Assembly (NCBI GenBank): GCA_964458525.1
Contig: CAYWJE010000001.1
Location: forward strand, 1 to 48,520
Reading direction: 5' to 3'
Origin: an uncultured Verrucomicrobiota bacterium
GTDB lineage: Bacteria; Verrucomicrobiota; Kiritimatiellia; JAAZAB01
DNA: 48,520 nucleotides
Made by a program: the position numbers and the translations under genes. Shown here in pieces: positions 21,989-44,471 of this stretch (positions within the stretch are counted from its first letter, which is position 1; every line of letters starts with the position of its first letter). Below the pieces are notes generated by a model, which saw nothing but the letters and a program-made list of their open reading frames with translations, was not told the DNA's origin and made no database searches.

Positions 21989-24211
21989 ATGAATGAATAT
22001 GAAATATCGCATGTGTTGCCCGGCATCCGACGATCTTCCGCCGCTCTGTTGGCCGCGGTCGCCCTGGTGGCGCTCGCGGCCGGCCCGGCTCGATCCGCCG
22101 CCGAGACAGCGGCGGATCTGGCGAAAATGACCGCCATAGTGACCGGCGCCGCCCCGTCGCCCGTTGAACTTCGAGCGGCATCCCAGTTGAGCGCCTATCT
22201 CTACAAGATGTGCGGGGTCAAACTGCCCGTGGAAAAGCGCGGGAAGACGGAGTTGGACGCGACCGACTTGATACTGGTGGGCGCCGATGCGGCGCTCGCG
22301 GCCGGCTCTGTCACGGCGGACGAGCTTGAAAAAGTGCGATGGGACGGCTACGTCATAAAGGCCGAAAAAGGACGCATCACGGTGGCTGGGCCGCGGGACC
22401 AGGCCACGTTGTACGGCGTGGCCGGTCTGCTGGAACGGCTCGGATGCCGGTTCTACGGCTCTTTTGAGATCGTCCCGCAGCTGGATAGTTCCGAGGTGGC
22501 CGCATTCTCCATATCCGACAAGCCGGCAATGGAGTTCCGGCGCGTCAATATGTCGAATTGGACTCTTAAGACGTCCGGCGACGATATAGGCGACCCGAGA
22601 GAAGCGACGAACCCGGCGCTGTTCACAAGCGAGGCGGGGTCCGATCTCTGGATTGACCACACCGCCGGCTACCTGGTTCCTCCGGAATTATACTTCAAGG
22701 ATCACCCCGAGTACTACGCGCTTGTGGATGGAAAACGCGTGAAATCCACCCGCAACTCTCCGCATCACAGGGTCACGCTCTGCCTCTCAAATCCGGATGT
22801 AACGAGAATTTCCATCGAGCGCGCGCTGAAATGGATCGAGGCGCAGCCCGAAAAGCGCTTCTTCGCGATCACCTACGGCGACACGGACGCGCAGTGCCAG
22901 TGCGAGAATTGCCGCGCCCTCGATCCGACGCCCGGCCGGCATCAGGACCGATTGCTTCACTGGGTGAATGCCGTAGCCCGCGCGGTCGCGGAAAAACACC
23001 CCGACAAGGTGATTCTCTCGTTCGCCTACGGAAACACCAGGTGGCCGCCGGAGAAGACCTTGCCTGAGCCGAACGTTATAGTGCTCTATGCGCCTTTTTT
23101 CGGGGTTTCGACAATCTGCCGTAGCCACCCATACTACATCGGCGCCAACAGCCAGCCGGCGGCAAGGGAGATGGAGGACTGGTTCAAACGCGCCCCGCGC
23201 AACCTCGGCATCTATGAATATTCGCTCGGCCCCGCGATTAAGATGCGAGCCTATGAGAAGAAATTCAAGTTCTGGGCCAAGCGCGGTTTTCGCGGCTTCT
23301 GGGAGTGCGGCCAACCGGACAAGCTGAGAGGCATGGAGACCTTCATTAAAGCAAAGCTCGCATGGGATCCCTCCCTCGATCCGTTGGAACTCGAGAGGGA
23401 ATACTGCGAAGCCTGGTACGGGCCGGCGGGCATGGATGTCTCGGAGTTCCTGGCCTGCGTCTTCGCCGTCTTGGGGGACGACCGCGACGAGTCCTATCCC
23501 GGAGAACGACCCTGCGTCGAAAAGGGGCTTGAGGCTTTTGAAAGGGCTGCAAAAGCCGCGGCCGGAACCGAGTTCGAAAAACGCTTGAAGGATGATTCCG
23601 ATCTGGCCACCTGGGCCGCCGAATTCGAAAAACGATTGGCGGCCATGAAGCAAGCCGAGGCTGCGGCGCCTGCTCCGACGAAGGCGCCGGACGCGGAAAA
23701 GCCCGAACGCACGCTCAGCCTCTCGAAGTCCACTCCGATGCGGCGCAGCGGTTTCAAGTTGGACGCCGAGTTTACGCCTTTGAAGACGATTCTTGTTTCA
23801 GGCGATCTTGATGAAGATTACAAGGCCGCGCTCGCTCTGCGGAAGTATATCGAGGAAACATACAAGGTAGCGCTGCCTGTTGAGAGGAACTCCGTTGAGA
23901 TCAGCGAAAACACGCGCGAGGCCATCCTGGTCGGAAGGAAGGCCGCTCTCGCGTCCGGGCTTGTCGCGGAATCCGATTTCGAAGCCGCAGGTCCCACCGG
24001 CGTCGTCGCCAGGGGGCGGGACGGTCGCATCGCTTTGGCGGCGTCAAAGGATAAGAACATCAGCGATGCCGTCGAGGGGTTCATTCACATTGACCGCGCC
24101 CGCCGGCCTGTCGCGGGCGGCTGGCGGATGACGACGTTCGGATGGATTCGCGAGTTCACGCTTATAGACCGGCCGCCGTTCGGCCCGGTCCATCCGGCCG
24201 GCTCCAACTGA
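21989..24211 (+). CDS. Secreted DUF4838-like protein
   Basis: Signal peptide region RRSSAALLAAVALVALAAGPARSA. HPEYYALVDGKRV...LCLSNPDVTRISIERALKWIE...QCQCENCRALDP is nearly identical in pattern to 9153..11474. Confidence 0.6.
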   Translation: MNEYEISHVLPGIRRSSAALLAAVALVALAAGPARSAAETAADLAKMTAIVTGAAPSPVELRAASQLSAYLYKMCGVKLPVEKRGKTELDATDLILVGADAALAAGSVTADELEKVRWDGYVIKAEKGRITVAGPRDQATLYGVAGLLERLGCRFYGSFEIVPQLDSSEVAAFSISDKPAMEFRRVNMSNWTLKTSGDDIGDPREATNPALFTSEAGSDLWIDHTAGYLVPPELYFKDHPEYYALVDGKRVKSTRNSPHHRVTLCLSNPDVTRISIERALKWIEAQPEKRFFAITYGDTDAQCQCENCRALDPTPGRHQDRLLHWVNAVARAVAEKHPDKVILSFAYGNTRWPPEKTLPEPNVIVLYAPFFGVSTICRSHPYYIGANSQPAAREMEDWFKRAPRNLGIYEYSLGPAIKMRAYEKKFKFWAKRGFRGFWECGQPDKLRGMETFIKAKLAWDPSLDPLELEREYCEAWYGPAGMDVSEFLACVFAVLGDDRDESYPGERPCVEKGLEAFERAAKAAAGTEFEKRLKDDSDLATWAAEFEKRLAAMKQAEAAAPAPTKAPDAEKPERTLSLSKSTPMRRSGFKLDAEFTPLKTILVSGDLDEDYKAALALRKYIEETYKVALPVERNSVEISENTREAILVGRKAALASGLVAESDFEAAGPTGVVARGRDGRIALAASKDKNISDAVEGFIHIDRARRPVAGGWRMTTFGWIREFTLIDRPPFGPVHPAGSN

Positions 24212-24291
24212 GAACGGATTCATCCCGCTGGACGGCCGCGGGAATGCCGGACGATTGCGCTTGTCACTGTAACAAACAGGGGGATAAAACC

Positions 24292-24852: not shown

Positions 24853-24952
24853 GCAACTGCGCCGAACCGGATGTGTACGTTGGAATTCGGAGCTCAAGCC
24901 CTTGTTCCCGGCGGAAGCACGGCCGGCGCGGCTTGAATGAGGCGAAATTAAG

Positions 24953-27900
24953 ATGCAAACATTCATTAATATGGAGCGAAGCGCGGACGGAACAAGGGTT
25001 GACACGGGCGGAATGCATTTTGAGCTGGGCGACGATTGCGTTCTGCGCCATCTGCGCGCGGGCAATAAGACGATCGTGGCCGAAAACACCGCTCCGCTGC
25101 TCTCCGCATGGATATTCGAGTCGCGCGATTATGACGGACGGCGCGATGCCGCTTCCGGCGCTGCGATCAGAGGAAAGTGGCTTCCAGACAAGCACGTCTG
25201 TTCGATGGAAGGCGGACTGTTTCGCGCCGAATACACCGGCCGGATTGATTTCGGATCGGGTGATGCGCTGGAGTGCACGGTACGCCTGGGCGCCTCGGAT
25301 GGAAGCGCCCTGCTCCGGACAACCGTAGGCGTTTCACCGATTGGCTCCTTTTTTAACCGCTTCATCCGCGGGGTTTCTCTGCATGTTCCGCTCGTCCTCG
25401 ACCGCAGGAAACGTGTCCGCCAGGCCGGCGACCGCGGAGTGCGTTGGAACACTCGCCACTGGTATCAATTCTGTGTCGGAACACGCGGCGAGTTGATGGC
25501 CGAGCCGGAGCATAATATCTGGCGGCTGTTCGCGACGGACCAGAACACGGCCCGCGATTTTCATATATGGCGCGCCGAGAGTCCGGCGACCTGCGCGCTT
25601 ACGATGCAGCGCGGCATCCGCGCGCCGGGCTGGATGGCGGCGCATGATCGGGACGGCGGCCTGGTCTTCGGATATCGCGGTTTCGCGGAACGCGCCCCGA
25701 AATCGTTGCGGGTGGACGCGGAAAACGGCGGCGCTGCGGAGATTTGTCTGTGGCATGAGGGGCTTCCGGCTCTCGACGTCCGCGCGCCGGATGCCGCGGC
25801 GGTGTTCGGCGAACCGCACGTGTGCGGCTGGCAATTTTTTGAAGGCCAATTCGATGAAACGCAGCCCGCGCCGGAACTCGAACAAGCTTTGAGGCTTACC
25901 TGCGCCGACAGCCCGAGCGCGAACAAACCGTTTGAAGTCCTTCCGTCGGACGCGCCGGCCGCCGATTCGGAGGCGCCATTGGTGTCCGGCGGCGTGCCGT
26001 TGCCCAGAGGCGCGCTCAAGGACGCCTCCAATGTGCGGTTGCGCCGAGACGGGTCGGATATCCCGCTACAGAGCCGCGCTCTCGGATATTGGCCCGACGG
26101 CTACATCAAATGGTTGTTGCTCACGTTTCCGGCGGATGGCGGCGAAACGGACGGCGCGGACGGGGAAGGGGAAGCTTTGTCGTTCGATCTGACCAGGCGA
26201 GATGGAAGCAGGCGCGGTTACCGCCTGGATTATGGCGGCGACGCCCGGTCCGGCAAACCCCGCGTCCGGCTCGAAGCGGAGATGAAAGAGGCGAATACAG
26301 TCTCAATAGATACCGGTCCTTTGCGCTTGACCATTCGTCCGGGCGAACGCTGGCTGGCCTCCGCCGTGTTCCAAGGCCGCGAGATGCTCGCGGACGGCGG
26401 CGCTCGTTCGTTCGTGGATTTTCTGCGCGTCTCGGATCCATATAAGTGCATGACGACCCATGCCCAGGGCGAGCCGGACGACGGCCCGTTTGCCGCTGAA
26501 ACCGCGGAGTTGGAGGAGGCCGGCCCCTTAAGGGCCGTTGTGCGCATTGAGGGCAAAACGACCTCGCGTGAGCCGGCCCGCGTTATCATCCGCATCGAGG
26601 CCTATGCCGGACGCTCGACTGTTCGCATATTTCATTCGGTCGAATTTCTTCATCAGGATCCGCGCGCGGCGTTCGTGCGCCGGATGGGCATCGAGCTGCC
26701 GTTGACGCCGATGGAAGACATCCGCGTCAGCGTGGGCGGAGAGACCGGCGCCAGCCCGGCGGCATCCTGCGCAAGCGCCGGATTGATTCATCACAGCCAC
26801 CTTGGATACCGGGCATGGAGCCGACGGGAAGGCGAGCGTTTCATGCGCACCGATGAGATCAAGAACCGATCCCGCGGCTGGATCAATCTGCGCGGCGGTT
26901 CCGGCGGCATTGCCCTGATGCTTAGGAACATGTGGCAACAGTTTCCCAACGAACTGATCGCCGATACCGTCGAACCGCGGCTGACCGCCGGACTATGGCC
27001 GGAGAGCGCGCCGGTTATGGACGTGCGGCGCTACTCGAACTATCCGCACCCCAGCCAGGGCGAATGCACTCCGCCGGGTTTCAGTAACTGGGTGGCCGAA
27101 CGTTATTACGGACACGACCCGTTCGTCGGCGTCTCGAAGACGCACGAATTGCTCCTGTATTTCCACGGATCGGACGCCGACGAAGCGAATATAGACGCCA
27201 TCGCCGCCGATTTCAACCGGCCGCCGCTGGTCTATTGCGGCGGCGATTGGTATGTGCGGACTGGCGTGATCCTGCCGCAGTCTTCTCCGTCGAGCGCCGA
27301 CTTTCCGCTGATGCACGCCAATCTCGATCATTACGCCCGATTCTGGCTCCATCACCAGAAACTCTGGGGCTGGTACGGCATCTGGGACTATGGCGACATC
27401 ATCCATATGTATAAATTCGGCTTGGGCACGATCGTGCCTGATGATAAGCTGGTGGAACTTATAGAACACGGCGAATGGCGCACGGCGGCCGATATCAAGA
27501 CCGGGATTGACGCAACTGAATGGAAAGTCCGGGATTACGCCCCAGACAATGAATGGGCCTTCGACAACGGACGCTGGGGCTGGACCAACACCGAAGGTCT
27601 GCCCGGCATGTTCATGCAGAACCAGTACATGCGCACGGGCGACCGCGAGATATTCTTCTTTGCCGAGGCCATGGCGCGTCATTCCCGTGACGTGGATATG
27701 CGCCATGCCGGCAGGTTTTTCGGACGGGGCACGCGCCATGGCGTGCAGCACTGGAGCGACGGCGATCACGAAGAACGGCAGACCACGCATTCCGAGTTCC
27801 GGTATGTGTACGCGCTGACCGGCGACAATCGCTGCCGTGATGTCGCGCGCAGGCTGTTCGACGGTTTTTATTCGAAACGCGATTTGCGGCAGCATGCGGA

Positions 27901-28603
27901 CCACAGCGGCCGGTTGCAGGGTCTGCTGGCCTGGTGGGAAATGAGCGGCAGCCGAGATGTCGCGGCTATGATTGCGAAATACGTGCCGGCATTCATCTTG
28001 CCGGACGGCATAGTCGAATCGCCCGAGGTCTGCTTCTCCGACATGACCTGCTTGTCAAGGGATCCCGGCGACATCAATGCCGGCAACATGTTCTTCTGGA
28101 CCTTCGGCGCCGCCCACGGACTGCTGGAATACTATTACCTGATCGCCGGAGACACGGAGTGCGCCGCGTTGGCCGATCGGCTCCGCAATGCGCTTGTTCG
28201 ATCGGCGGAACACGCGCTGGACGGCTCGCTCCCACGCAACCTGCTCAAGGCCGTGGCCTTTGCCGCCCGTCACGCCGATGACCCCGCGCCTTTCAAGGAA
28301 CGTCTGCGTCAAGAGGTGAAAGATGAACCCTTCTTCACCCGGGTAGTTCCCCATGATCCCGAACAGTATTCCGGAGCGCGCGGTTATATCCGCGGCAACG
28401 TTTCCGGCTCGCTGTTTATCATGAATGCGATCGTCTATCTGCTGTCCGCGCTTGACGGCGAGCCGGCAGTGGCGTACAATGAAAATCAAGAGTTTCATAA
28501 CGGCGGTGACGGACCATTTCACGCATCCGAATTGAGCTGGCAATCGGAATACGACCGGCCGGAATTACGGGAATATCTGCAAATCCGATATCCGCAACCT
28601 TGA
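24953..28603 (+). CDS. L-family large protein, full length (1216 aa), no signal peptide; possibly a YetA/PL26-like lyase or hydrolase fold
   Basis: Long ORF with coding-type composition. Paralogous to 2..1216 and 31563..34022. Blocks: GGVPLPRGALKDASNVRLRRDGSDIPLQSRALGYWPDGYIKWLLL, WAFDNGRWGWTNTEGLPGMF, FFAEAMARHSRDVDMRH, HWSDGDHEERQT. The functional family is recalled, not verified. Confidence 0.75.
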   Translation: MQTFINMERSADGTRVDTGGMHFELGDDCVLRHLRAGNKTIVAENTAPLLSAWIFESRDYDGRRDAASGAAIRGKWLPDKHVCSMEGGLFRAEYTGRIDFGSGDALECTVRLGASDGSALLRTTVGVSPIGSFFNRFIRGVSLHVPLVLDRRKRVRQAGDRGVRWNTRHWYQFCVGTRGELMAEPEHNIWRLFATDQNTARDFHIWRAESPATCALTMQRGIRAPGWMAAHDRDGGLVFGYRGFAERAPKSLRVDAENGGAAEICLWHEGLPALDVRAPDAAAVFGEPHVCGWQFFEGQFDETQPAPELEQALRLTCADSPSANKPFEVLPSDAPAADSEAPLVSGGVPLPRGALKDASNVRLRRDGSDIPLQSRALGYWPDGYIKWLLLTFPADGGETDGADGEGEALSFDLTRRDGSRRGYRLDYGGDARSGKPRVRLEAEMKEANTVSIDTGPLRLTIRPGERWLASAVFQGREMLADGGARSFVDFLRVSDPYKCMTTHAQGEPDDGPFAAETAELEEAGPLRAVVRIEGKTTSREPARVIIRIEAYAGRSTVRIFHSVEFLHQDPRAAFVRRMGIELPLTPMEDIRVSVGGETGASPAASCASAGLIHHSHLGYRAWSRREGERFMRTDEIKNRSRGWINLRGGSGGIALMLRNMWQQFPNELIADTVEPRLTAGLWPESAPVMDVRRYSNYPHPSQGECTPPGFSNWVAERYYGHDPFVGVSKTHELLLYFHGSDADEANIDAIAADFNRPPLVYCGGDWYVRTGVILPQSSPSSADFPLMHANLDHYARFWLHHQKLWGWYGIWDYGDIIHMYKFGLGTIVPDDKLVELIEHGEWRTAADIKTGIDATEWKVRDYAPDNEWAFDNGRWGWTNTEGLPGMFMQNQYMRTGDREIFFFAEAMARHSRDVDMRHAGRFFGRGTRHGVQHWSDGDHEERQTTHSEFRYVYALTGDNRCRDVARRLFDGFYSKRDLRQHADHSGRLQGLLAWWEMSGSRDVAAMIAKYVPAFILPDGIVESPEVCFSDMTCLSRDPGDINAGNMFFWTFGAAHGLLEYYYLIAGDTECAALADRLRNALVRSAEHALDGSLPRNLLKAVAFAARHADDPAPFKERLRQEVKDEPFFTRVVPHDPEQYSGARGYIRGNVSGSLFIMNAIVYLLSALDGEPAVAYNENQEFHNGGDGPFHASELSWQSEYDRPELREYLQIRYPQP

Positions 28604-28639
28604 TTGACCGGACGCTTTTGATGATAATGGAGGAGAATC

Positions 28640-31360
28640 ATGAGACAGTTGCAGGCTGAACAACATTCGGGAGGATCGCGCAAGTTGATCGCGGCGGTCG
28701 TCATGCTGTCGTTTCTGCTTGCCGACGGCGCTTTGGCCGCCGCGAAATACTGGATCGGTCCCGCTTCAGGAAGCTTTGCGGCCGACGCTCACTGGTCGCT
28801 GTCGTCGGGCGGCGGAAACGACACCACGGCGCCGGGCTCGTCCGATGTCGCCGTGTTCGACGACGGCGGCGCGGCTGATTGCAGCATTGATTCCGGCATC
28901 ACCGTACAGGGTCTGGAGATACATAGCGGGTATTCGGGCTCGATCACCCAGTACGCGGGCGCGTCCATTGGCGTCGGGACATCCGGCTACGCCCAGGCCG
29001 ACGGGTCATTCGCGGGCGGGAACGCCGATTTGACGACCGAATATTTCACCCTTTCCGGCGGCGCGTTCACCGCGCCGGCGGGCACGCTCAATATTCAGAA
29101 CACCTCCGGCGGCTCCGCGAACAAAACCAACTTCACCTGGACGGGCGGAACTTTCAGTCATAACGGCGGAACCCTGCGATTCAGAACCTGGCTTGCAGTC
29201 AACAGCTATCCCATCCACACCATCAATCTGAACGGCGGCTCGCTCACCGTGAACAACCTCATAGTCACCGGCGGTAATTATCCCGCCTATGGAAGGCATA
29301 TGACATACAGTCTGGGCGCGGCCGACAAGTTCATCGTCGAGGGCGACCTGACCCTTGAGGGCGATGTGCCGGCGAGTCAATATGCGACACTGTATTTATC
29401 GAACGGCGTTATTGAAGTTCACGGCAACTTGACCGTGAACCCCGGGATACTCGGCGGAACCACCGCCGTGAAATTGGTCGGCGCCGCGGATCAGACGTAC
29501 ACCTACACAGGCGGCACTAATCAGAACAGCATTGAGATAGACAAAACGGCGGGAAGTGTCAGCCCCGCGCCGGGAACGACGGATTTCCCGGCAAAGGCAC
29601 TCACGCTCACGCTGGCCGACGGCGCTTTTATCGCGCCCGCCGGGTTGTTCGAGGCCTCTACCAGCTATGTTCAAAATGACGGCGTTTTCACTCCGGGCGC
29701 GGGCGACGTGAGCGTGGGGTCCTTCACTCTCAACGGCGGCACATTCACCGCGCCGACAGGCATCATGGCCATCGCATGCACAACAGCCGGCGCAACGGAT
29801 GTATTCGCGCTGGCCGGTGGAACATTCAATCATAACGGCGGAACCCTGCGGTTCAGCTCCTGGTTCTCTTCCTTGGCCTCTATAATTCACGGTATTGTTC
29901 TTAACGGCACGCTGACGGTGAACAACCTTGAGTATACCGGCGGGAACACACTTTTCGGCGCCACCCGGTATGTGAGTTACAGCCTTGGCGCCGCGGACAA
30001 GTTTATTGTTGAAGGCAACCTGCTGCTGGGAGAGGATTGGGATCGTGATCCGGACGCCTTGAGCAAAGCGGATAACGGGAGCATTGAGCTTTACGGTAAT
30101 TTGACAGTCATTGGCACCCCGGCCATCGGCGACAGTCATGGCGACGGCCCGTCCGGGACAGCCGGCGGAAGCACCGTTCTTAAATTACTCGGAGACGCGG
30201 ATCAGACCTATACTTATACTGGCGGGATCATTCAGGACGCCTTGGAAATAGACAAAACAGGCGGCTCCGTTACGCCCGGCCTTGAAGGGATGGATTTCCC
30301 TGCCAAGCTCTTCACCCTCACCAGCGGCGAATTCACGGCGCCGGGCAGACTGTTCAGCGCTTCCTCCGACTACGTCCAAAACGGCGGCGTTTTCATTCCA
30401 GGCACGGGCGATGTGAGCGTGCAGAACTTCCACCTGAACGACGGCACGTTCACGGCCCCCGCCGGAACGATGTCCGTCACGAACACATACACAGGCAGCA
30501 GAACGATATTCAAGCTGGCCGGCGGCCAATTCATAGAGAATAACGTCTCAATGGAATTCAGGTCCTGGGTCAGAATTAATTCTTACTGGGTCAACACTAT
30601 TGACCTGGGCGGGACGACCGTGACCGTGAGCAATCTTGTTTTCAGCGGCGGCAATTGGATGAATCAACCCAACTGGACCGTTGCCTACGCGCTTGGAGCG
30701 GACGATACGCTGGTTGTCCGGGGGAACTTGCTGATGGAGAGCGACATGTTGAGAGATACGAACGCCAAGATTCGCGTGGATGCCGACCTTGACCTTCATG
30801 GCGATCTCGCCGTGAATCCCGGAGTCTACGGCGGAGCCGCTTCAATCAGGTTTTTCGGAGACAGGGCGCAGTCCTTGACGCAGACCGGCGGCACGCCGCC
30901 GACTAACTTATGGACTCTGGACAAGAGCGGCGGAAGCCTCTCACTCGCCACCGACTTTTCGATGTCGGGCAAGACGCAGGATTTGTCGTGGGTGCGCGGG
31001 ACTCTGAACCTCAACTCGAATGTTCTGAGCGTGGGCCGGAACGTGACCGTTGACCCCGGCACGGGCGCGCTGGGCGTGACGGTTGCCGACGCGGCCGCTG
31101 CCGGCAGGCTCGTGGTCACCGGCGCGTTGACAGGCATAGAGAAGCTGGACCTGAACGTGGCGGTGACGGCGACGACGGAAGAAACCGCGGGGCGAAGCTA
31201 CGTGATACTCAGCAACAACACACCGCTTGCCGCCCAGTTCGCGGCCGTGAAGTGGCCGGGCGCCTGGCGGGGCGAAGTTGACTACACCGGCAATGGAGGA
31301 CGTGAGGCGATGCTGTTCAATCTGCAGAAATCGCGCGGAACGAAGTTCATATTCAGGTGA
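28640..31360 (+). CDS. Secreted repeat protein (beta-helix / adhesin-like) with a C-terminal (P)RG tail
   Basis: GGAGG before the ATG at 28640. Signal peptide KLIAAVVMLSFLLADGALAAA. N-terminal KYWIGPASGSFAADAHWS. Three ~230-aa tandem repeats. Ends LQKSRGTKFIFR. Confidence 0.75.
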   Translation: MRQLQAEQHSGGSRKLIAAVVMLSFLLADGALAAAKYWIGPASGSFAADAHWSLSSGGGNDTTAPGSSDVAVFDDGGAADCSIDSGITVQGLEIHSGYSGSITQYAGASIGVGTSGYAQADGSFAGGNADLTTEYFTLSGGAFTAPAGTLNIQNTSGGSANKTNFTWTGGTFSHNGGTLRFRTWLAVNSYPIHTINLNGGSLTVNNLIVTGGNYPAYGRHMTYSLGAADKFIVEGDLTLEGDVPASQYATLYLSNGVIEVHGNLTVNPGILGGTTAVKLVGAADQTYTYTGGTNQNSIEIDKTAGSVSPAPGTTDFPAKALTLTLADGAFIAPAGLFEASTSYVQNDGVFTPGAGDVSVGSFTLNGGTFTAPTGIMAIACTTAGATDVFALAGGTFNHNGGTLRFSSWFSSLASIIHGIVLNGTLTVNNLEYTGGNTLFGATRYVSYSLGAADKFIVEGNLLLGEDWDRDPDALSKADNGSIELYGNLTVIGTPAIGDSHGDGPSGTAGGSTVLKLLGDADQTYTYTGGIIQDALEIDKTGGSVTPGLEGMDFPAKLFTLTSGEFTAPGRLFSASSDYVQNGGVFIPGTGDVSVQNFHLNDGTFTAPAGTMSVTNTYTGSRTIFKLAGGQFIENNVSMEFRSWVRINSYWVNTIDLGGTTVTVSNLVFSGGNWMNQPNWTVAYALGADDTLVVRGNLLMESDMLRDTNAKIRVDADLDLHGDLAVNPGVYGGAASIRFFGDRAQSLTQTGGTPPTNLWTLDKSGGSLSLATDFSMSGKTQDLSWVRGTLNLNSNVLSVGRNVTVDPGTGALGVTVADAAAAGRLVVTGALTGIEKLDLNVAVTATTEETAGRSYVILSNNTPLAAQFAAVKWPGAWRGEVDYTGNGGREAMLFNLQKSRGTKFIFR
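29045..31130 (+). repeat. Three tandem ~226-235-aa coding repeats inside the 906-aa protein
   Basis: Units start at 29045 (FTLSGGAFTAPAGT), 29723 (FTLNGGTFTAPTGI) and 30428 (FHLNDGTFTAPAGT). Each contains GGTF.HNGGTLRF..W, (L)TVNNL..TGGN, YSLGAADKFIVEGNL, TYTYTGG...EIDKT.GSV.P. The end of unit 3 is approximate. Confidence 0.6.
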
Positions 31361-31562
31361 ATCGGCGGAGCGGAAAGAATTGAACCGAGAAGGCGCAAGG
31401 GGGGAAGGTTTGATGGACGCAGCGCAAGCTGTCGCGTCCGCGTTCCCGGGAATCCCGTCAAGAAAATCTTAACTGCCCGATTCAGGTTGAACGAAGCGCA
31501 GGCACGTGAATTCGAACAAATCCGCGAAAACGGCAAACCGCGCGAGGGAAGGGAAGGCAAAT

Positions 31563-34022
31563 ATGACATTTGTTGCTTCAGTATGTGTGGAAGAGACGCT
31601 GGGAATTGAACGTATCCAAGAACCCGTGCTTGGGGGAATTCCCGTTGCAAAAGGACAGATCAGGCAGGAACGGGCAGGACATTTCGTTCTGAAGAATGCG
31701 CATGGCAAAGGGTTTCCTTTCCAGGGTTCGCCGGCCGCTTATTGGCCTGATCGGTCCGTGAAGTGGCTGCATCTGTGCGGGCAGCTCAACCTTCAGGGCG
31801 GAAAACGCAATATGTTTACGGTCGAGGCGGACGAAAATGAGCAAGAACCGGATTTTACAGCCGAAGGAGGAGATCGCTTTATCAGAATCCGGGGAGGTGT
31901 CCTCGATGTAAACATTGGCGCCGACGTATGCGAGATTCTTACCGTCAGTGATACGGCAAGCGGCAACATGCTTGTGAAGTCGCCGGGGCTTTCCTTCCGC
32001 ATGTCGGCCTGCGGTCCGGAACGCAGGAATACGAGGGAGCTTGCCTTCGAACTCGATCCTGGGATGCCGCGGCTCGTGGTTGACGGGCGGAACCGCAAGG
32101 TGGTGCGTCTGTCCGGCCGAATGTTGGATTCAGGGGCGAGAGAAATAATGCTCGTGAGGCTCTTCGTCGAGGTCTTTCGGAATGTCTACAGGATCGGAAT
32201 CCAACCCGTTTTTATTTTTACAGGTATTCCCGAGGAAGATCTGATTGTCGGATCCGAACTCGTCGTTCACGGCGCAATGGGATGCAACGGTCTGCATTAC
32301 TCGTTCGGCAACAGCAGGGGAAGTGGATACTCCGACCGCGTTCGTCCCTACGAACTCGGACCCAGGTGGCCGCAAGCTCGTCAACTGCAGTTGGGTTCCA
32401 CGTTCTATAAAACGGAAAAACGCGTATCGCCCCGAGGGTCATGGGTAAAAGCCCTTGAAGGATCTCGCGCGCAGGGATGGTGTCATCTCGGCGATGCAGA
32501 TAAGGGCATTACAGCGGCAATGCGCTACTACTGGCAGGAATACCCCAGGTCTCTGGCTGTTGACGCGGATGCGGGCACATTGACGTTTGGCCTGTGGCCG
32601 GTGGAGGCTGAACCGCTCGACATGAGGCGGTATTCTCCGACTTCGCACGGCCCGTGTTCCTATCGGCCGGACATCATGATCTATGAATCCGGTTCCGGTC
32701 CTTTCCCAAGCCGCGAAATGGGGTCGGCGGGTACAGCCAAGTCACATGAACTGGCCTTGAATTTTCATGCTGCCGGCGCCGATGACATAACGGAACGTGC
32801 TCTTTCATTTATCACCCCGTGCCGGATCATGGCTGACCCCGGCAGTCTGGCGGAGAGTCGGGTCCTCGGTCGGCTGGTTCCGATGGACAAACCCCGGCCG
32901 AACGCCTCCGACAAATGGATCAGCAGGGCGATGGACTTCTATGTCGCGGAGCGGGATGTGCGTGGATGGTATGGTCAGATCGATTTCGGCGACGTGATGA
33001 TGCGTTATCGTGCCGAGACGGACAGGTGGGCTTTTGATGAGGGCGGGCGTGCATGGATGAATACCGAACTCAGGCCTGACTACGGCATGTGGCTTAATGC
33101 GCTTCGCGCCGCGCGGTCCGACTGGCTGGAAGCCGCCATCGAGATGACGCGGCACAACCGGGACGTGGACATGTACCATGCAGGCCCCCTGAAGGGCTTT
33201 GGTTCCCGCCACAACGTGAGCCACTGGGGCTGCCAGTGCAAGGACAGGCGCATAAGCATGCCGATCTCACATCGGCTTCACTATTTCCTGACCGCCGATC
33301 CATGGACCTTGGAAGTGATTCGCGAGACAGCTTCGACACTGGACGGAAGAGGGACGATAGAACATGAACTGGCGCCTTGGGGAACATCGGTTGTTTGCAC
33401 GCGCCACGTTCTGTGGGAGCTGAGCGGAAAGGAAGAAGACGGGAAGGTTGTAAAGAAACTCGCCGACCTGATGGTAAATGCGTTCAATCCTGATGGCGCG
33501 CTGTATGCCCGCCTGAAGCTCGATCCGGAGACCGGCGAGGGAGACATCTTCACGGATGAACAACTTTCGAATACCACTTTCTTTTACGCATTCGGCGGAC
33601 AACATGTACTGCTCGAGATGATTCAACTCCTGAACCATACCGGTCTGTCCCGGGCTGTTCTCCGACATGTGGAGTATCTTATAGGCGTGGAAGAGAGCTC
33701 AAATGAGACAACGATAGGCACAAACCCTATTCCGCTCCTCTCCTATGCTCTTGAGAAGACCGGCAACAAAGCCATCGGGGAGATAATTGACAGGATTGTG
33801 GCGGGAAGGAATTTCACGACCGTATCCGCCGGAGGGGAGGGAATCCTGGATGAGCCTCCACATCGGATCGCTCCGGATGTTCCAAACAGTATCAACTTCA
33901 CGGGGGTCATAGGCACTTTCCTGCAGATGATCCCCTACCATCCGGCATCACGATCACACGACGGGAAGTCCCCGGGCAAAAAGAACGAGTATGAGGACAA
34001 ATCCCAAAAACCAGATTGTTGA
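31563..34022 (+). CDS. L-family protein, short divergent paralog (about 820 aa), no signal peptide
   Basis: The ATG at 31563 is in frame with ORF 31506..34022. GGIPVAKGQIRQERAGHFVLKNAHGKGFPFQGSPAAYWPDRSVKWLHL aligns with aa ~340 onward of the 1216-aa paralog. WAFDEGGRAWMNTELRPDYGMW and MTRHNRDVDMYH align with its C-terminal blocks. Confidence 0.7.
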   Translation: MTFVASVCVEETLGIERIQEPVLGGIPVAKGQIRQERAGHFVLKNAHGKGFPFQGSPAAYWPDRSVKWLHLCGQLNLQGGKRNMFTVEADENEQEPDFTAEGGDRFIRIRGGVLDVNIGADVCEILTVSDTASGNMLVKSPGLSFRMSACGPERRNTRELAFELDPGMPRLVVDGRNRKVVRLSGRMLDSGAREIMLVRLFVEVFRNVYRIGIQPVFIFTGIPEEDLIVGSELVVHGAMGCNGLHYSFGNSRGSGYSDRVRPYELGPRWPQARQLQLGSTFYKTEKRVSPRGSWVKALEGSRAQGWCHLGDADKGITAAMRYYWQEYPRSLAVDADAGTLTFGLWPVEAEPLDMRRYSPTSHGPCSYRPDIMIYESGSGPFPSREMGSAGTAKSHELALNFHAAGADDITERALSFITPCRIMADPGSLAESRVLGRLVPMDKPRPNASDKWISRAMDFYVAERDVRGWYGQIDFGDVMMRYRAETDRWAFDEGGRAWMNTELRPDYGMWLNALRAARSDWLEAAIEMTRHNRDVDMYHAGPLKGFGSRHNVSHWGCQCKDRRISMPISHRLHYFLTADPWTLEVIRETASTLDGRGTIEHELAPWGTSVVCTRHVLWELSGKEEDGKVVKKLADLMVNAFNPDGALYARLKLDPETGEGDIFTDEQLSNTTFFYAFGGQHVLLEMIQLLNHTGLSRAVLRHVEYLIGVEESSNETTIGTNPIPLLSYALEKTGNKAIGEIIDRIVAGRNFTTVSAGGEGILDEPPHRIAPDVPNSINFTGVIGTFLQMIPYHPASRSHDGKSPGKKNEYEDKSQKPDC

Positions 34023-34080
34023 ACCATCCCGAAAAATCTTGACCGCCGAATGTCGATCGAACAACGGGAGCAGGGCGCAG

Positions 34081-37071
34081 ATGAAATTACAGAAAAGAGC
34101 AATTTGCATAATGCTGTTTCTTCTTCCTTCCGTTGTATTGGCGCAGGACTGGTTCGTGCCGAATGATGGTGACGGTGACGGCCGCTCGTGGGTTTCCGCG
34201 GCATCGCTGGCCAATGCGCTGGCTTCAGCTGATGACGGCGACGTGCTATGGCTGGCGGCCGGAACATACCAGGGCAGTACGTTCAGCCCGGGAAACAACA
34301 ATCTGAAGCTCTACGGCGGATTCACCGTCGGAATGACGCAATTCGAACAGCGCGACTGGGAAGCCAACAGGACGGTTCTCAACGGCGAGGGCGTGCGCAG
34401 GGTGCTCTCTATCTCGCTGGACGGGATTCTTCTCGACGGGCTTGTGATCAGCAACGGCTTCTGGTCGAGCTCCAACGATGCCGGCGGCGGGATACGAAAG
34501 TCAGGCGTGGGTTCGCTCACCGTTGCAAATACCGTTTTCTGCAACAACAGGTTCACGGGCACCGGAAGAAACGGAGGCGGTGGATATTTCAGCGGCGGAT
34601 CGGTCACGCTTACGAATTGTTCGTTTATCGGCAATATCGGAGCGCAATACAACAGGGGCGGAGGTTTCTACGCCACCGGCGTGAACCTTGTTGTTGAGGA
34701 CTGCCGTTTTTCGGACAATCGAACCGGCAGTTCAAACGCAGGCGGCGGCGCTTTCTATGTCACTGGCGGAACGCTTGACGTCCGTGCCTGCGTGTTCGAT
34801 GCCAATGTGATCGGAACGTGCTCGACTTCCGACGGCGGCGCGGTGAGCCTGGCCGGAGCGCTTTCCGCGACATTCAGAAATTGCGTATTCAACGGAAACA
34901 GCGGCGGCAGAGGCGGCGCTATTGCAGTGTCCCTCAGCGAGGAATCCACAACTACGGTGGAGAATTGCACTTTCGCCAACACGAACAAGGCCGGCTATTA
35001 CGGCGGCGCTGTTTTTGTCGGGTCGGGAATTGTGCGTGTGAATAACAGCATCCTTTGGAACAACAGCGCGCAATACGGGGCGGAAATCTATAATGGCGGC
35101 GGCGCGATATCAGTCGAGTTCTGCTGCTTAAGCGCAACCGGGGCGGGTGCGCTGAGCGGCTCGGTTTCGATGTTGAGCTGCATCACCGAAGATCCTCTCT
35201 TTGCCGGAGGCTCCGACTTTCATTTGCAGAGCTCGGAGGGCAGATGGGATCCCGATTCAGCATCCTGGACCAGCGATGCAGGACAGTATAGTCCCTGTAT
35301 TGACCGCGGTGATCCCGAGAGCGATTACTCCCGCGAGCCGACTGAGCACGGCTACAGGGTCAACATCGGCGCCTATGGTAACACGCCGTATGCGTCAAAG
35401 AGCCTCGCTGTCGTTGCGCCTGTCGTCGAAAACAGGCCTGCGGCGGTGGCTTATAACACCGTCAGGATGAACGGCGAACTCATCTCGGGCGGACAGGCGC
35501 GCGTTACGATCTGCTACGGCACGAGCAACGGCGGAACAACGATTGAGAACTGGGAGAAACAGACGGAGACGCTACCCTCGCCGCGAACCGGCGCCTCATT
35601 CTCTGTTGCGGTCGGAGACCTCATGCCGGATACGCTCTACTACTTCAGATGCCTCGCCTTCAACGCGGCGGGCACTAACTGGGCCGTTAACGCAAGCACA
35701 TTCACCACGGGGGCGGCGGCCCCTTCGGGCGGCCCCGGAATAATCCACGTGAATGGCGCGGCAACCGGTCCTGAAACGGGAAGGGATTGGATAAGCGCAT
35801 TTCGCACAATCCGTGAAGGGGTTATGGCAGTGAACGGAGAGTCGAATGAGATCTGGATTGCACAGGGACATTATGTCGAGGGAGGCACACTGTCGGTGAA
35901 TAAGAGCATGAGTATGTATGGCGGTTTTGCCGGGGTGGAGACGATCCGGTCTCAGCGCGATCTCGCGAATGCCCCGGTTCTCGACGGAGAAGGTTTATAC
36001 AGCCTGATCCGGGTCAGCTTCGACGGCGTGGTTCTTGATGGCCTGATTCTGAGCAACTCCTTCTCATCAACCTTGGCAAAACTTGGAGCGGGAGTGCACA
36101 AGACAGACAACGGAGTCCTCACCCTCGCAAACATCACGTTCACGGATAACACATTTTCCGGAACAGGGGCTGCCGGGGGTGGCGGACACTTCAACGGCGG
36201 ATCGGTAGTCCTCACAAACTGCGTGTTCATAAAGAACTCAGGCGGTTCTTACAACTCCGGCGCAGGCTTCTATGCAAACGGAACAGACCTGATTCTCAGG
36301 GATTGCCGCTTCATCGCCAACGACTCCGGAGGATGGGACGGAAAGGGCGGCGCAATCTATGTCACTGGCGGAACGCTCGATGGCTCCGGTTGCATATTCG
36401 AAAAAAACGTGGCCGGCCCTTCGGTCAATTCCGGAGGCGGCGCAGTATATGCGACCGGAGCGCTTTCGCCGTCGTTCAGAAACTGTGTATACATGGGGAA
36501 CTACAGCAAGTCCGCATCAGGCAGGGGCGGGGCGCTCCGGGTGGCCATTAGCGCGGGGCAAACCGCCACGGTTGAGAACTGCTCCTTTACCGAAACGAAC
36601 AGGGCGATGCTTGGAGGAGCGATCTTTGCTGAATCGGGCGTTTTTCATCTGAAGAACAACATTTTCTGGAACAACAACGCGTATACGACCGGCCACGAGT
36701 TATACGCCACAGGCGCCGTCACTTTCGTGACCTTTTCGTATTCCTGTTTCACGGGAACGAACGAACCGCATGTTGTCAAGGAGGGCGGCGCAGTGATTGA
36801 ATTGAATGAGGGAGTCATCACGGGCGATCCTCTTTTCGCAGCAGCCTGGGACGCGCATCTACGCAGCCGCGGTGGACGCTGGGATGATGCCGTCCAGGGA
36901 TGGGTGGAGGATATCGACACAAGCCCGTGCATTGATGCCGGCGATCCGGAAGACCCGGTGGGCGGGGAGCTAAGACCGAACGGCAGACGGATCAATATGG
37001 GCGCATATGGAGGCACTGCGCAGGCGTCCATGACGCTCGTGCCGCGCGGCTCAGTGTTCGGCACGCGCTGA
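34081..37071 (+). CDS. Secreted right-handed beta-helix protein with Pmp-type GGA(I/V/F) / FxxN repeats, internal duplication, central Fn3-like domain, C-terminal (P)RG tail
   Basis: The ATG at 34081 starts signal peptide MKLQKRAICIMLFLLPSVVLAQ. Repeated GGGAFYVTGG, GGAIAV, GGAVFV and F.NC.F / F.DN.F motifs. The two halves are collinear (start 34141 and 35740). YYFRCLAFNAAGTNW is Fn3-like. Ends LVPRGSVFGTR. Confidence 0.75.
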   Translation: MKLQKRAICIMLFLLPSVVLAQDWFVPNDGDGDGRSWVSAASLANALASADDGDVLWLAAGTYQGSTFSPGNNNLKLYGGFTVGMTQFEQRDWEANRTVLNGEGVRRVLSISLDGILLDGLVISNGFWSSSNDAGGGIRKSGVGSLTVANTVFCNNRFTGTGRNGGGGYFSGGSVTLTNCSFIGNIGAQYNRGGGFYATGVNLVVEDCRFSDNRTGSSNAGGGAFYVTGGTLDVRACVFDANVIGTCSTSDGGAVSLAGALSATFRNCVFNGNSGGRGGAIAVSLSEESTTTVENCTFANTNKAGYYGGAVFVGSGIVRVNNSILWNNSAQYGAEIYNGGGAISVEFCCLSATGAGALSGSVSMLSCITEDPLFAGGSDFHLQSSEGRWDPDSASWTSDAGQYSPCIDRGDPESDYSREPTEHGYRVNIGAYGNTPYASKSLAVVAPVVENRPAAVAYNTVRMNGELISGGQARVTICYGTSNGGTTIENWEKQTETLPSPRTGASFSVAVGDLMPDTLYYFRCLAFNAAGTNWAVNASTFTTGAAAPSGGPGIIHVNGAATGPETGRDWISAFRTIREGVMAVNGESNEIWIAQGHYVEGGTLSVNKSMSMYGGFAGVETIRSQRDLANAPVLDGEGLYSLIRVSFDGVVLDGLILSNSFSSTLAKLGAGVHKTDNGVLTLANITFTDNTFSGTGAAGGGGHFNGGSVVLTNCVFIKNSGGSYNSGAGFYANGTDLILRDCRFIANDSGGWDGKGGAIYVTGGTLDGSGCIFEKNVAGPSVNSGGGAVYATGALSPSFRNCVYMGNYSKSASGRGGALRVAISAGQTATVENCSFTETNRAMLGGAIFAESGVFHLKNNIFWNNNAYTTGHELYATGAVTFVTFSYSCFTGTNEPHVVKEGGAVIELNEGVITGDPLFAAAWDAHLRSRGGRWDDAVQGWVEDIDTSPCIDAGDPEDPVGGELRPNGRRINMGAYGGTAQASMTLVPRGSVFGTR

Positions 37072-38889: not shown

Positions 38890-38975
38890 ATTGGAACAGA
38901 ATCGGATAGATAATCGGCAATTCTTTGCGGCCACGCGGCACAGCTCGACAACTACAACTGGAAGGGGAACAGGCA

Positions 38976-40295
38976 ATGGCACCAAAAAGTAAGATGGGAA
39001 ACAAACCGATCAAATATGGCGTTCTTGGAATAGGTCGCGGTCAAACATTCATGGGCGACGCTGCCAAGGCCGCGGGCTTCGAGCTAGTAGCCATCTGCGA
39101 CCAGCGCGAGGAGGCCGTGATGAATCTAGCCAAGTCGCGCGGAATAGCCGGGTACACGGATTTCGACAAGTTCCTGGAGCACGATCTTGACGCGGTCGTT
39201 CTCGCGAACTATTTCCACCAGCATGCGCCTTACGCCGTCAAGGCGCTTAAGGCCGGTAAGCACGTGATGAGTGAGTGCGCAGCGTGCCACACGCTCGGCG
39301 AGGGAGTGGAGCTCGTGCGCGCGGTCGAGAAGACCGGCAAGGTCTATATGTTCGCCGAAAACTACGCTTTCACACCCGCCCGCCAGGAGATGCGCCGCGT
39401 CTTCCAGACCGGCGACCTCGGTAGGTTCATGTACGGCGAGGGGGAATATGTTCACTCGATGGCTGCCGATTCCGGCAACTCGATCAGCCCCGGCCTACGC
39501 CACTGGCGAAACTGGAATCCCGCTACGTATTACTGCACGCATGCTCTTTCCCCGATCATGTATATCACCGATGTCCGCCCGGTAAAGGTTAATGCCTTCA
39601 TAATCCGCCAGGCGCCAGATGATCCTGTTGCGGCCATCCGCCCCAGAATAAGCGATGCAGCATCAATGATAGCGCTGCGGATGGACAACGGAGCGGTGGT
39701 CAAACTGCTTCAGGTCAGTCTTCGCGGGCACGGCGGACCTACCCGCATCCATTGCTCCCGCGGCGCGATGACCGATTCCGGAGGACAAATCAATATCATA
39801 CGCGAGCAGTACCACGAGAAACTGGTTCACCCGAAGAGCCTCAGCTACACCCCAAACTTGCCGAAGCTCGACGCGCAGACTGAAGCGGCGGCGCGCGGAA
39901 GCGGGCACGGGGGCGGCGATTTCTGGATGATGTACCACTTCGGACAGGGAATCAGGACCGACACCCCCCCGTTCCTCGATGTGTACCGGGGCGTCGCGAT
40001 GTCGATCGTCGGAATCCAGGCGTGGCGCTCGGCGCTGGACGACTCGAACACGTTTGTCATTCCCGATTTCAGGAAGAAAGACCAGCAGAGGAAATATGCG
40101 GGGGACGACTGGTCACCCGATCCCGACCGCCGCAGGCCCGGCCAGCCGCCGAGCAGCATTGACGGTTTCCGCGATCCTGATCCGCGGGCGCTGAAGCGCG
40201 CCATCAAAACATGGAAGAACAACGGACATACCGCCGAAACATGGAAACAGATGGGCTACAGTCCCCGCGAAATAGCAAAGATGACAGGCAAATAG
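38976..40295 (+). CDS. Gfo/Idh/MocA-family NAD(P)-dependent oxidoreductase
   Basis: ATG at 38976 after GGAAGGGGA. Rossmann start IKYGVLGIGRGQTF. DAVVLANYFHQHAPYAVKALKAGKHVMSE matches the family pattern D.V.I.TP...H......AL.AGKHV..E. Confidence 0.7.
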   Translation: MAPKSKMGNKPIKYGVLGIGRGQTFMGDAAKAAGFELVAICDQREEAVMNLAKSRGIAGYTDFDKFLEHDLDAVVLANYFHQHAPYAVKALKAGKHVMSECAACHTLGEGVELVRAVEKTGKVYMFAENYAFTPARQEMRRVFQTGDLGRFMYGEGEYVHSMAADSGNSISPGLRHWRNWNPATYYCTHALSPIMYITDVRPVKVNAFIIRQAPDDPVAAIRPRISDAASMIALRMDNGAVVKLLQVSLRGHGGPTRIHCSRGAMTDSGGQINIIREQYHEKLVHPKSLSYTPNLPKLDAQTEAAARGSGHGGGDFWMMYHFGQGIRTDTPPFLDVYRGVAMSIVGIQAWRSALDDSNTFVIPDFRKKDQQRKYAGDDWSPDPDRRRPGQPPSSIDGFRDPDPRALKRAIKTWKNNGHTAETWKQMGYSPREIAKMTGK

Positions 40296-42102: not shown

Positions 42103-43710
42103 ATGAAATCATTGATGAGAATGGTTCTTGCCGCGGCAGTGAGCCTCGCGGCTTGCGGCGCGCGCGCAAACAATTTGTCCGTCACAAACGTTACGATAAC
42201 CGTGCGCGACACCACCACGGCCTGGATTCATTTCGATATTTCATGGGAAAACTCCTGGCGCTACACGAACGTCAACCATGACGCCGCGTGGGTCTTCTTT
42301 AAGATCAAGGAGGACGGAAGCGACGTATGGAATCATGCAATACTCGAGGCCGATGCGGTGATAAATCCCTCCGGCTACTCGGTTGACTCGGGGACGGAGC
42401 TGGATTTCATCGTGCCGGAGGACAAAGTCGGTGTGTTCGTACGGCGTAAGAATGAAGGTGATGGAACGCTGGATTCTTCGGGCGTGTCGGTGTTGTGGAA
42501 TTTTTCCTCCAACAGTCTGCCACAGACGGCGCGGGCGTGGGTGAAGGCCTGCGCTTTCGAGATGGTGTATGTCGTTGAAGGACAGTTCTATCTCGGCTGC
42601 GGCGCGGAGACAAACAAGGTGGTCGGCTCGTTCACCGACGGAGCGTGGACTGCCGGCACACCCACTAGTTTTCCATTTCTCGTTACATCGGAGGACGCGA
42701 TAACCATCGGCAACAATCCCGGCGAGCTGTGGGGGACATCGAGCAGCGGGAATAGCACGATCGGCGGGGCAGGTGTCCTCTCCAACGCTTTTCCCAAGGG
42801 ATATGCCGCCTTCTACTGCATGAAGTACGAGGTCACACAGGGCCAGTACCGCGATTTTCTCAACACGCTCACCCGCGACCAGCAGATCAGACGGACGCAG
42901 ACCCAGATCTCCGATGCCTTCGTCATGAAAGCATACGAGGATAGTGATTGGACCGTAATTGGCCAACGCATTGGCATACGCTGTCCTTCCGTTGTCCCCG
43001 ATCCGTCGGCAGTGATAACCTTCGGCTGCGACGGCAATTCGAACGAGATATTAAATGAGCCCGATGATGCCGGGAACCGGGTATGCGGCAACTTCGGCTG
43101 GGGAGATATCGCGGCTTATGCGGACTGGGCCGGTCTGCGGCCCATGACCGAGCTTGAATTCGAAAAAGCGTGCAGGGGCCCGCTGCCCCCGGTTCAGTGC
43201 GAATACGCGTGGGGCAGCACGAATATCGTTGTCCTGGCGAGCCAGAACGACGATGGCACAGGCTACGCCACCGTTAAGACTCCGGTGGGGGCCAATTGCT
43301 ATCATGACATCTCATTGAGCGGGCCAAGACGGGCGGGGCTATACGCGACGGCAGCTTCCTCGCGGGAGCAATCAGGAGGCTCGTACTGGGGGATAATGGA
43401 ACTGACCGGCAATGTCAACGAACGCATCATCTCGGTGTCGCGGACGGAAGGCCGATCCTATACAGGATTGCACGGCGACGGCGTGCTGGATAGCTATGGC
43501 GACGCGAGTGTGTCAGGCTGGCCGGGATCCACCGCCTACGGCACCGGAATGCGCGGCGGGCGATGGTATTATGCAAGCACGTGGGGACTGCACACATCGA
43601 ACAGGGTCTACGCGAACGCCGTTCAGCCGAATCGTTTACATTCCAACAACAAGGGCTGCCTGCCCGGCGCGCGGCATGTGCGCACGGCGCCGGTCGGGGC
43701 GGGACCTTGA
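42103..43710 (+). CDS. Secreted FGE/SUMF1-fold protein, type A (second cassette)
   Basis: The ATG at 42103 lies 10 nt after the previous stop and is preceded by GAGGGA. Signal peptide MKSLMRMVLAAAVSLAACGARA|NNL. FVMKAYEDSDWTVIGQRIGIRCP and GCLPGARHVRTAPVGAGP match 1496..3148. Confidence 0.8.
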   Translation: MKSLMRMVLAAAVSLAACGARANNLSVTNVTITVRDTTTAWIHFDISWENSWRYTNVNHDAAWVFFKIKEDGSDVWNHAILEADAVINPSGYSVDSGTELDFIVPEDKVGVFVRRKNEGDGTLDSSGVSVLWNFSSNSLPQTARAWVKACAFEMVYVVEGQFYLGCGAETNKVVGSFTDGAWTAGTPTSFPFLVTSEDAITIGNNPGELWGTSSSGNSTIGGAGVLSNAFPKGYAAFYCMKYEVTQGQYRDFLNTLTRDQQIRRTQTQISDAFVMKAYEDSDWTVIGQRIGIRCPSVVPDPSAVITFGCDGNSNEILNEPDDAGNRVCGNFGWGDIAAYADWAGLRPMTELEFEKACRGPLPPVQCEYAWGSTNIVVLASQNDDGTGYATVKTPVGANCYHDISLSGPRRAGLYATAASSREQSGGSYWGIMELTGNVNERIISVSRTEGRSYTGLHGDGVLDSYGDASVSGWPGSTAYGTGMRGGRWYYASTWGLHTSNRVYANAVQPNRLHSNNKGCLPGARHVRTAPVGAGP

Positions 43711-43790
43711 CGGTGGAGCAAACGATGACTAGCCGGCGGGCAGGGAACGCGGATTTGGAATTTCGTTCCGTGTTGTGCAAAAGGTATTTT

Positions 43791-44471
43791 ATGAACTTAC
43801 GATGGCTATTAATGATACCGATTGCCCTGGGCATCATGTCCACTCCGGCCCGGGCGCAAAGCTGGAGCACAAACTTCGTTTGTTTCCGCGGCGGGTCGTA
43901 TGACGGATGGGATGAGAGCATGAGCACCAACTCAATGGGGCTTGGCGGAGGTTCCGTTTCTCTATCCTCGGGAAGCGATCAGACACTGAACTGGTCGGAC
44001 ACCGAGGCGCCGTTACAGACAATGACCGTCTCGGTCCTTGACGAGGGCACCCCGCTGGTCATCACCGCCGGCGACACGATCCGCATAGATGTGCCTGCGA
44101 ACTGGGAGTGCCGGTTCAATATTTCGGTGACTACTCCCGCCTTCGGAGGCGGAGCCGCCGGCAAGGTGAGTTCCGTCGTTACCTATTCGGGAGACGGACG
44201 AACATTAATAATGCATGTGACTGCGGACTTCCGCAATGATGACGTTCTGACAATAGGCGGAATCAAACTCGTCAACCTCCCAATGTGCCCGCCGGGAGGG
44301 GCGAAGCTGGAACTCGATTTCACCGGCGATGGAAACAGGGATGCCTATGATGAGTATTGGCTGCTTCTGAGTGCCGTATGGCCCGGCGGATCGTACGACG
44401 GCTGGGATGAAAACAGGACCTCCGACCCAAAGCGTTTCTGGAGGCCAAGAGGCACAATACTGATGTGGTGA
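43791..44471 (+). CDS. Small secreted protein S2, paralog of 4892..5596
   Basis: The ATG at 43791 is in frame with ORF 43563..44471. Signal peptide MNLRWLLMIPIALGIMSTPARA. SWSTNFVCFRGGSYDGWDES ... WPGGSYDGWDEN ... FWRPRGTILMW. Confidence 0.7.
   Translation: MNLRWLLMIPIALGIMSTPARAQSWSTNFVCFRGGSYDGWDESMSTNSMGLGGGSVSLSSGSDQTLNWSDTEAPLQTMTVSVLDEGTPLVITAGDTIRIDVPANWECRFNISVTTPAFGGGAAGKVSSVVTYSGDGRTLIMHVTADFRNDDVLTIGGIKLVNLPMCPPGGAKLELDFTGDGNRDAYDEYWLLLSAVWPGGSYDGWDENRTSDPKRFWRPRGTILMW

Follow-up and report, generated by a model that had tools for sequence, protein, structure and literature searches.

Three genes for large, mutually related proteins, here termed the L family, lie on a single 48,520-nucleotide contig of an uncultured Verrucomicrobiota bacterium, and a first-pass annotation made from the sequence alone pointed out that each has downstream of it a gene for a protein ending in a short (P)RG tail. 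The locus raises the question of what the L proteins do, and whether their repeated proximity to tail-bearing genes marks a functional partnership. The window analysed is this entire contig (C1) of a 3.46-Mb metagenome-assembled genome (MAG; 359 contigs, 87% complete). We assign the L genes to the PcRGLX-like (PL26-like) superfamily, as three members that diverged long ago; they are new members of a known but little-studied enzyme family. We consider it likely that they encode exo-type glycan-cleaving enzymes of a degradation locus, and that their adjacency to tail-bearing genes is a general feature of such loci and not a partnership. The three genes are as follows.

2..1216, plus strand: L copy 1, long type, the C-terminal 404 residues of a PcRGLX-like protein, its 5' part cut by the contig end (PF21346, E = 1.3e-29).
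24953..28603, plus strand: L copy 2 (P0001), long type, a PcRGLX-like protein of 1216 residues (three Pfam PcRGLX domains; PDB 5xq3/5xqo, E = 1e-27).
31563..34022, plus strand: L copy 3, short type, 819 residues from the ATG at 31563 (three Pfam domains; PF21346, E = 5.6e-56).

Both complete copies show the same domain order, a RIFT barrel (PF19501), a central beta-sandwich (PF21345) and an alpha/alpha-toroid (PF21346), and all domains exceed the Pfam gathering scores: 40.4, 111.7 and 113.7 bits, respectively, in copy 2, and 30.4, 71.4 and 191 bits in copy 3. The copy 1 fragment matches PF21346 at 104 bits, also above the gathering score, and these three proteins account for every PF21346 match in the MAG. 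By sequence, the sole PDB match is PcRGLX (5xq3/5xqg/5xqj/5xqo), found with E-values of 1e-27 for copy 2 and 6e-43 for copy 3, and of 4e-46 when a profile of the long type is used. The family had been guessed correctly at first pass, as YetA/PL26-type proteins, from a WPDG..KW motif and an (alpha/alpha)-toroid-like C-terminus: Pfam, the PDB sequence search and AlphaFold/Foldseek agree on it, the hidden Markov model and Foldseek checks of the 1216-residue protein both yielding PcRGLX.

Structural modelling of copy 2 extends this assignment to the fold. The predicted architecture of the L proteins comprises a RIFT barrel, a beta-supersandwich and an (alpha/alpha)-toroid, to which the long type would add a duplicated supersandwich at its N-terminus. 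In copy 2 the parts are placed as follows.

24953..25882, plus strand: extra N-terminal domain (residues 1-310), predicted second beta-supersandwich (AlphaFold2 and Foldseek).
25982..26137, plus strand: RIFT-barrel domain (residues 344-395) with the motif YWPDGYIKW (PF19501, E = 2.7e-10), aligning with PcRGLX residues 23-70.
27275..28600, plus strand: (alpha/alpha)-toroid with the GTRHGVQHWSD block (PF21346, PDB alignments, AlphaFold2 model of the protein body).

The AlphaFold2 model of residues 330-1216 (predicted local distance difference test score (pLDDT) 82.7; predicted template modelling score (pTM) 0.88) matches only PcRGLX chains over the full length of the fold (5xqo, E = 6e-30, template modelling (TM) score about 0.68 both ways), and the next Foldseek matches have the supersandwich alone in common. 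For the N-terminal 310 residues (pLDDT 83.6) Foldseek returned 5xq3 (E = 1.9e-17, TMq 0.71), and a partial PF21345 match falls inside this domain at residues 188-268. From these models, the N-terminal supersandwich is predicted to be a duplicate of the central PcRGLX domain. It carries an invariant basic motif, RLPL..KRKR..Q.GD.G..W.TRH..QF (residues 146-175; window 25390-25480), which could offer an anionic glycan a further place to bind. PcRGLX and the two long copies have an identical GTRHGVQHWSD block. Comparison of the aligned PDB chains shows Phe at position 437 of the substrate complex 5xqo and Tyr in 5xq3, a variant that makes this Tyr a candidate catalytic residue. A Tyr-Glu pair at the aligned position is invariant in all 15 short-type sequences; in the long type the profile alignment sets Y718/Y719 opposite it, less securely, as the loop differs in length.

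At first pass, neither complete L protein had been seen to possess an N-terminal hydrophobic segment, and for copies 2 and 3 this holds by a hydrophobicity rule and inspection by eye. The start of copy 2 (ATG at 24953) is preceded by GAGG, with a TGA stop four codons upstream. A search upstream of copy 2 for a hidden leader, in frame or frameshifted, was negative, and none could be encoded in the 100-bp spacer that separates it from the flavin-reductase gene. The frame of copy 3 allows a second start at 31506, giving 838 residues in place of 819, and a hydrophobic N-terminus is absent from either; read from the ATG at 31563, its N-terminus is MTFVASVCVEETLGIERIQEPVLGGIPVAKG, which matches all 14 orthologs (40-48% identity). 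For copy 1 the N-terminus is cut off by the contig end, so that its signal status cannot be read. All 15 short-type sequences (copy 3 and the 14 orthologs) are leaderless, and since this includes every ortholog examined we regard the short type as a constitutively leaderless subfamily. The long type differs: in 27 full-length orthologs (35-63% identity), which come from Pirellulales, Armatimonadota, WS1 and other groups, a Sec or Tat leader is present in about 22 and five begin at the mature domain, as judged by eye. Copy 2 likewise starts directly at its mature domain, whereas most of its orthologs have a leader; a 42%-identical N-terminal fragment from relative G012 has one too. Leaderlessness was accordingly rejected as a hallmark of the whole family, being true of the short type alone. 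That nearly everything around the L genes is exported, as had also been claimed, stands only in part: in the flavin reductase, MocA oxidoreductase and fucosidase-like protein of the window no obvious hydrophobic leader is visible by eye either.

Two well-conserved bacterial subfamilies are thereby defined, one always leaderless and found with DUF4838 proteins (and at one locus MocA), the other distinguished by its duplicated N-terminal supersandwich and variable export signals; both are good targets for biochemical characterization. Several further features of the long type were recorded. In its orthogroup (P0006-P0068), Sec leaders occur alongside leaderless proteins, a single Tat leader (P0010, RREFIGG) and a lipoprotein-like anchor (P0063), and about half of the orthologs have an extra N-terminal LamG domain. 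Long-type proteins of several phyla (P0005-P0050; window 28540-28603) end in a near-invariant C-terminus, SWQSEYDRPEL.EYLRIKHPQP, directly before the stop. Copy 1 and a side clade have instead a basic end, ..REKPRAR or ..RDRRKERK.

To place the L genes in context, the neighbourhoods of L homologs were compared across 40 related genomes and in other phyla. Among short-type orthologs from other phyla, a DUF4838 gene is adjacent in three of the six loci read (the P0074 locus counted once); one of these three has a GFO/IDH/MocA gene downstream and one has a CBM9 protein nearby. MocA or ThuA genes occur near long-type orthologs, and one ortholog comes directly after two genes, for a PL11 rhamnogalacturonan lyase and for a Tat-MocA protein. 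Pfam finds the DUF4838, GFO/IDH/MocA and CBM9 families all encoded in the window, the first two at the following positions.

21989..24211, plus strand: DUF4838 protein (Pfam), one of three in the window.
9072-11474 and 20064-21965: the other two DUF4838 proteins (Pfam).
38925..40295, plus strand: GFO/IDH/MocA oxidoreductase (Pfam), of the family that recurs near L orthologs.

A module of short-type L and DUF4838 genes, with MocA at one locus, is common to the window and other phyla: metagenome and Armatimonadota contigs (L070, L071, L101) carry a short-type gene beside one or two DUF4838 genes. In relative G020 (a 3.9-Mb genome) DUF4838 has undergone a very large expansion, with about 100 matches versus the 7-13 seen in three further genomes of its family.

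The tail-bearing genes of the window, on which the suggestion of a partnership was based, are these.

28640..31360, plus strand: secreted repeat protein of 906 residues ending in KSRGTKFIFR at its stop, 36 bp 3' of copy 2 (termini read).
33991..37071, plus strand: Pmp-like right-handed beta-helix protein of 1026 residues with the tail VPRGSVFGTR (PF13229, E = 4.8e-22); likely start near 34081.
4892..5596, plus strand: S1, a small secreted protein with the tail KPRGVLIMSQ, third gene downstream of copy 1.
43563..44471: a second S1, tail-bearing and 52% identical to S1, with no L gene upstream.

Copies 2 and 3 are indeed followed immediately by a tail-bearing gene, copy 3 overlapping the 1026-residue gene or, if the latter starts near 34081, lying about 59 bp from it. 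For copy 1 the adjacency is not immediate: about 280 bp downstream come two FGE-fold genes without a tail (A and B), and only then S1. When the order of the 26 genes of the window is shuffled, at least two immediate pairs of an L gene and a tail-bearing gene arise with p of about 0.05. The 906-residue protein has no Pfam or NCBIfam match and no homolog in the 40 relatives; no NCBIfam model matches the L proteins or S1 either. The 1026-residue protein has a choice-of-anchor-Q-like end (weak match to NF041518, residues 977-1006) and is homologous to tail-bearing beta-helix neighbours of L genes in relatives.

Local duplication had been offered at first pass as a second way to account for the pattern, the threefold adjacency being then a relic of a duplicated unit of one L gene and one tail-bearing gene. 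The contig is enriched in both families, holding three L copies and four of the approximately 12 credible tail-bearing open reading frames (ORFs) of the MAG, as such a history would produce. Copy 2, however, shows only 45% identity with copy 1 (E = 1e-108) and only 25% with copy 3 (E = 6e-37). Its orthologs elsewhere reach 50-63% over the full length (about 60% for those of Pirellulales and metagenomes), and the nearest database relatives of copy 1 (P0054, P0055) reach 61-64%. The L copies, 25-45% identical mutually and 60-64% to proteins of other genomes, are thus closer to outside orthologs than to each other, which makes recent local duplication unlikely; the paralogs represent ancient subfamilies. 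Homology is also lacking among the downstream genes: the 906- and 1026-residue proteins, compared as candidate duplicates, show no similarity, and copy 1 precedes a different cassette that is also found without any L gene. We consider the duplication account largely refuted and very improbable.

Nor are L homologs elsewhere regularly followed by tail-bearing genes. In G020, which has the closest copy 2 ortholog among the 40 relatives (46% identity), the gene is followed by genes for leaderless, tail-less proteins, and long-type orthologs of other phyla have unrelated neighbouring genes. The exception is genus g11, in which L genes of three subfamilies adjoin genes for Pmp-like beta-helix proteins ending in D.G[AC]YE and a terminal G-[ST]-h-h-x-h-[RH] (G010:C14, G010:C11 = G024:C6, G024:C14, G010:C137, G024:C22), on the same strand and separated by anything from a 4-bp overlap to an 85-bp gap. 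A like-for-like comparison was made in three related genomes (G010, G024, G017), close relatives whose neighbour rates are not phylogenetically independent: six of 15 L genes there lie beside genes with both the tail and the choice-of-anchor-Q motif, as do six of 29 control DUF4838 genes under the strict motif, or 8-9 of 29 when looser tails are allowed. Over all relatives sampled, the figure for L genes is 6/38. Genes of the choice_anch_Q type number 50-82 per related genome and nine in this MAG. As the DUF4838 control rate is similar, we ascribe the adjacency to carbohydrate-enzyme genes of the clade in general and not to L specifically; together with the differing neighbours of orthologs, this leaves the functional coupling proposed at first pass unsupported. 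Attention thus shifts away from L and onto the beta-helix surface proteins. Viewed simply as a property of G010, G024 and G017, choice-of-anchor-Q tail genes stand beside carbohydrate-active enzyme (CAZyme) genes far above their gene share of about 2% (6/15 for L, 6-9/29 for DUF4838; loci L039, L042, L044, L047-L049, L074, L076, L079, L087, L090, L093).

Taken together, family, fold and context make it most likely that the L proteins are exo-type cleaving enzymes, probably lyases, and we infer an acidic complex glycan as their substrate. The short type, presumably cytoplasmic, would finish off imported oligosaccharides, and the long copy of this genome lacks the leader of most of its orthologs. 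Tail-bearing surface proteins, those of the Pmp-like choice-of-anchor Q kind especially, would be scattered through the carbohydrate-enzyme loci of this bacterial family; L genes would then stand beside them because such proteins are scattered in CAZyme loci, and not because L needs them. The L proteins match a catabolic family, and DUF4838, with GFO/IDH/MocA at one locus, explains the locus. Its 48 kb are rich in esterases, DUF4838 proteins and oxidoreductases.

Several points weigh against this reading. Signal peptides were assigned with a simple hydrophobicity criterion and visual inspection, not with SignalP. The window contains no PL11, PL4 or GH28 gene, and no transporter that might supply a cytoplasmic enzyme was seen in it; the MAG, at 87% completeness, yielded no GH88/GH105 unsaturated-uronyl hydrolase. 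As to the neighbours, the 6/15 observed in g11 stands against about 4% expected from gene counts, and the order of short-type L followed by a beta-helix gene recurs in G010:C14 besides the window. A functional link of some kind joining beta-helix proteins to CAZymes, L included, is plausible.

The narrowest form of such a link would be a dedicated pair, in which the adjacent tail-bearing surface protein captures or endo-cleaves the glycan, L cleaves it from the end, and adjacency is under selection. This would suit the excess and the recurrent gene order just given, and also the placement of three g11 L subfamilies directly beside tail-bearing choice-of-anchor-Q beta-helix genes on the same strand. 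Against it stands, beyond the similar DUF4838 rate (6-9/29) and the adjacency of only six of 38 L genes over all relatives sampled, the diversity of the supposed partners: the beta-helix neighbours are not orthologous, the 1026-residue protein of the window and a 566-residue protein of G010 matching at merely 34 bits; the 906-residue protein and S1 have unrelated folds, the former unique to this genome in the search of 40 relatives; and L orthologs of other phyla have different neighbours. We regard a dedicated pair as unlikely.

The chemistry allows a different alternative. With no GH88/GH105 in the MAG and no pectin-type genes in the window, uronate-lyase chemistry and a pectin-like substrate are tentative, and the L proteins might instead take part in an oxidoreductase-assisted glycoside cleavage that proceeds through keto-sugar intermediates with the neighbouring GFO/IDH/MocA or ThuA-type proteins. 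Genes of these types occur no more than two genes away from L orthologs at several unrelated loci, and are present in the window, and PL26, although a large family, has a single characterized enzyme (PMC10461819). Conservation with a proven lyase nevertheless covers the putative active-site block and, less securely in the long type, the Tyr; one L ortholog has a PL11 rhamnogalacturonan lyase gene next to it, and the incompleteness of the MAG tempers the missing hydrolase. MocA genes, moreover, abound in the CAZyme loci of these phyla, which further counts against the oxidoreductase route. We judge that route improbable, somewhat more so than the dedicated pair, and retain the reading of the L proteins as exo-type, probably lyase-like, enzymes.

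A broader proposal seems to us speculative and on the whole doubtful, if less so than either of these alternatives: the Pmp-like beta-helix proteins with a tail tag may act systematically as surface partners, linked in operons, to large enzymes that cleave glycans (PcRGLX-like, DUF4838, perhaps others), and the PcRGLX-like/DUF4838/MocA module may mark an uncharacterized pathway of glycan catabolism. If true, this would amount to a layout like that of a polysaccharide utilization locus (PUL), a surface binder or depolymerase plus an enzyme, so far undescribed in the phylum.

Elsewhere in the window, an aldo/keto reductase gene (37234-38331, minus strand), with a weak Tat-signal match, is the sole clear minus-strand gene, and an exported protein of 613 residues (46625-48466, plus strand) weakly matches a right-handed beta-helix and lacks a tail. 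A scan of positions 24000-38500 for promoters and terminators gave sites no more numerous than in shuffled sequence, and an Rfam scan of the whole window gave no match.

Among known systems, the neighbours of L find their likeness in the choice-of-anchor Q beta-helix proteins (NF041518), which combine a D.G[AC]YE module with a short terminal tag, as do the 1026-residue protein and the L neighbours in relatives; this likeness concerns those neighbours and not the L proteins themselves. The tag of the beta-helix neighbours, a seven-residue G-[ST]-h-h-x-h-[RH] end, is distinct from PEP-CTERM, LPXTG and type IX secretion system (T9SS) signals.

The L proteins themselves compare most closely with PcRGLX of Penicillium chrysogenum (CAZy PL26, EC 4.2.2.24), with which they have in common the three-domain architecture, the overall fold and the WPDG..KW motif of the RIFT barrel. 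The activity of PL26 splits Rha-(1,4)-GalA by beta-elimination, working from the reducing end. Identity in the Foldseek alignment is merely 16-17%, set against sequence-search E-values of 1e-27 to 1e-46. PcRGLX is fungal and secreted, whereas the L proteins are bacterial and leaderless; the long type differs further in its added N-terminal supersandwich and conserved ...LRIKHPQP C-terminus, the short type has HWGCQCKD in place of HWSDS.., and the L locus is not of pectin type. The published PL26 network stays one component even at 1e-179, and for YetA-like bacterial proteins no biochemical characterization is reported in the literature searched (PMC10461819). Because PL26 members are far more alike mutually than L is to PcRGLX, we file the L proteins as members of the PcRGLX-like superfamily; judged by sequence, they may lie outside curated PL26 or at its edge. 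The nearest counterparts in annotation are the bacterial proteins described as YetA-like or "exo-rhamnogalacturonan lyase family protein", which have the same Pfam families as L: NCBI gives the latter label to two Armatimonadota short-type orthologs, and a control search with PF21346 matches proteins of Bacteroides thetaiotaomicron and of Bacillus subtilis, the latter presumably YetA.

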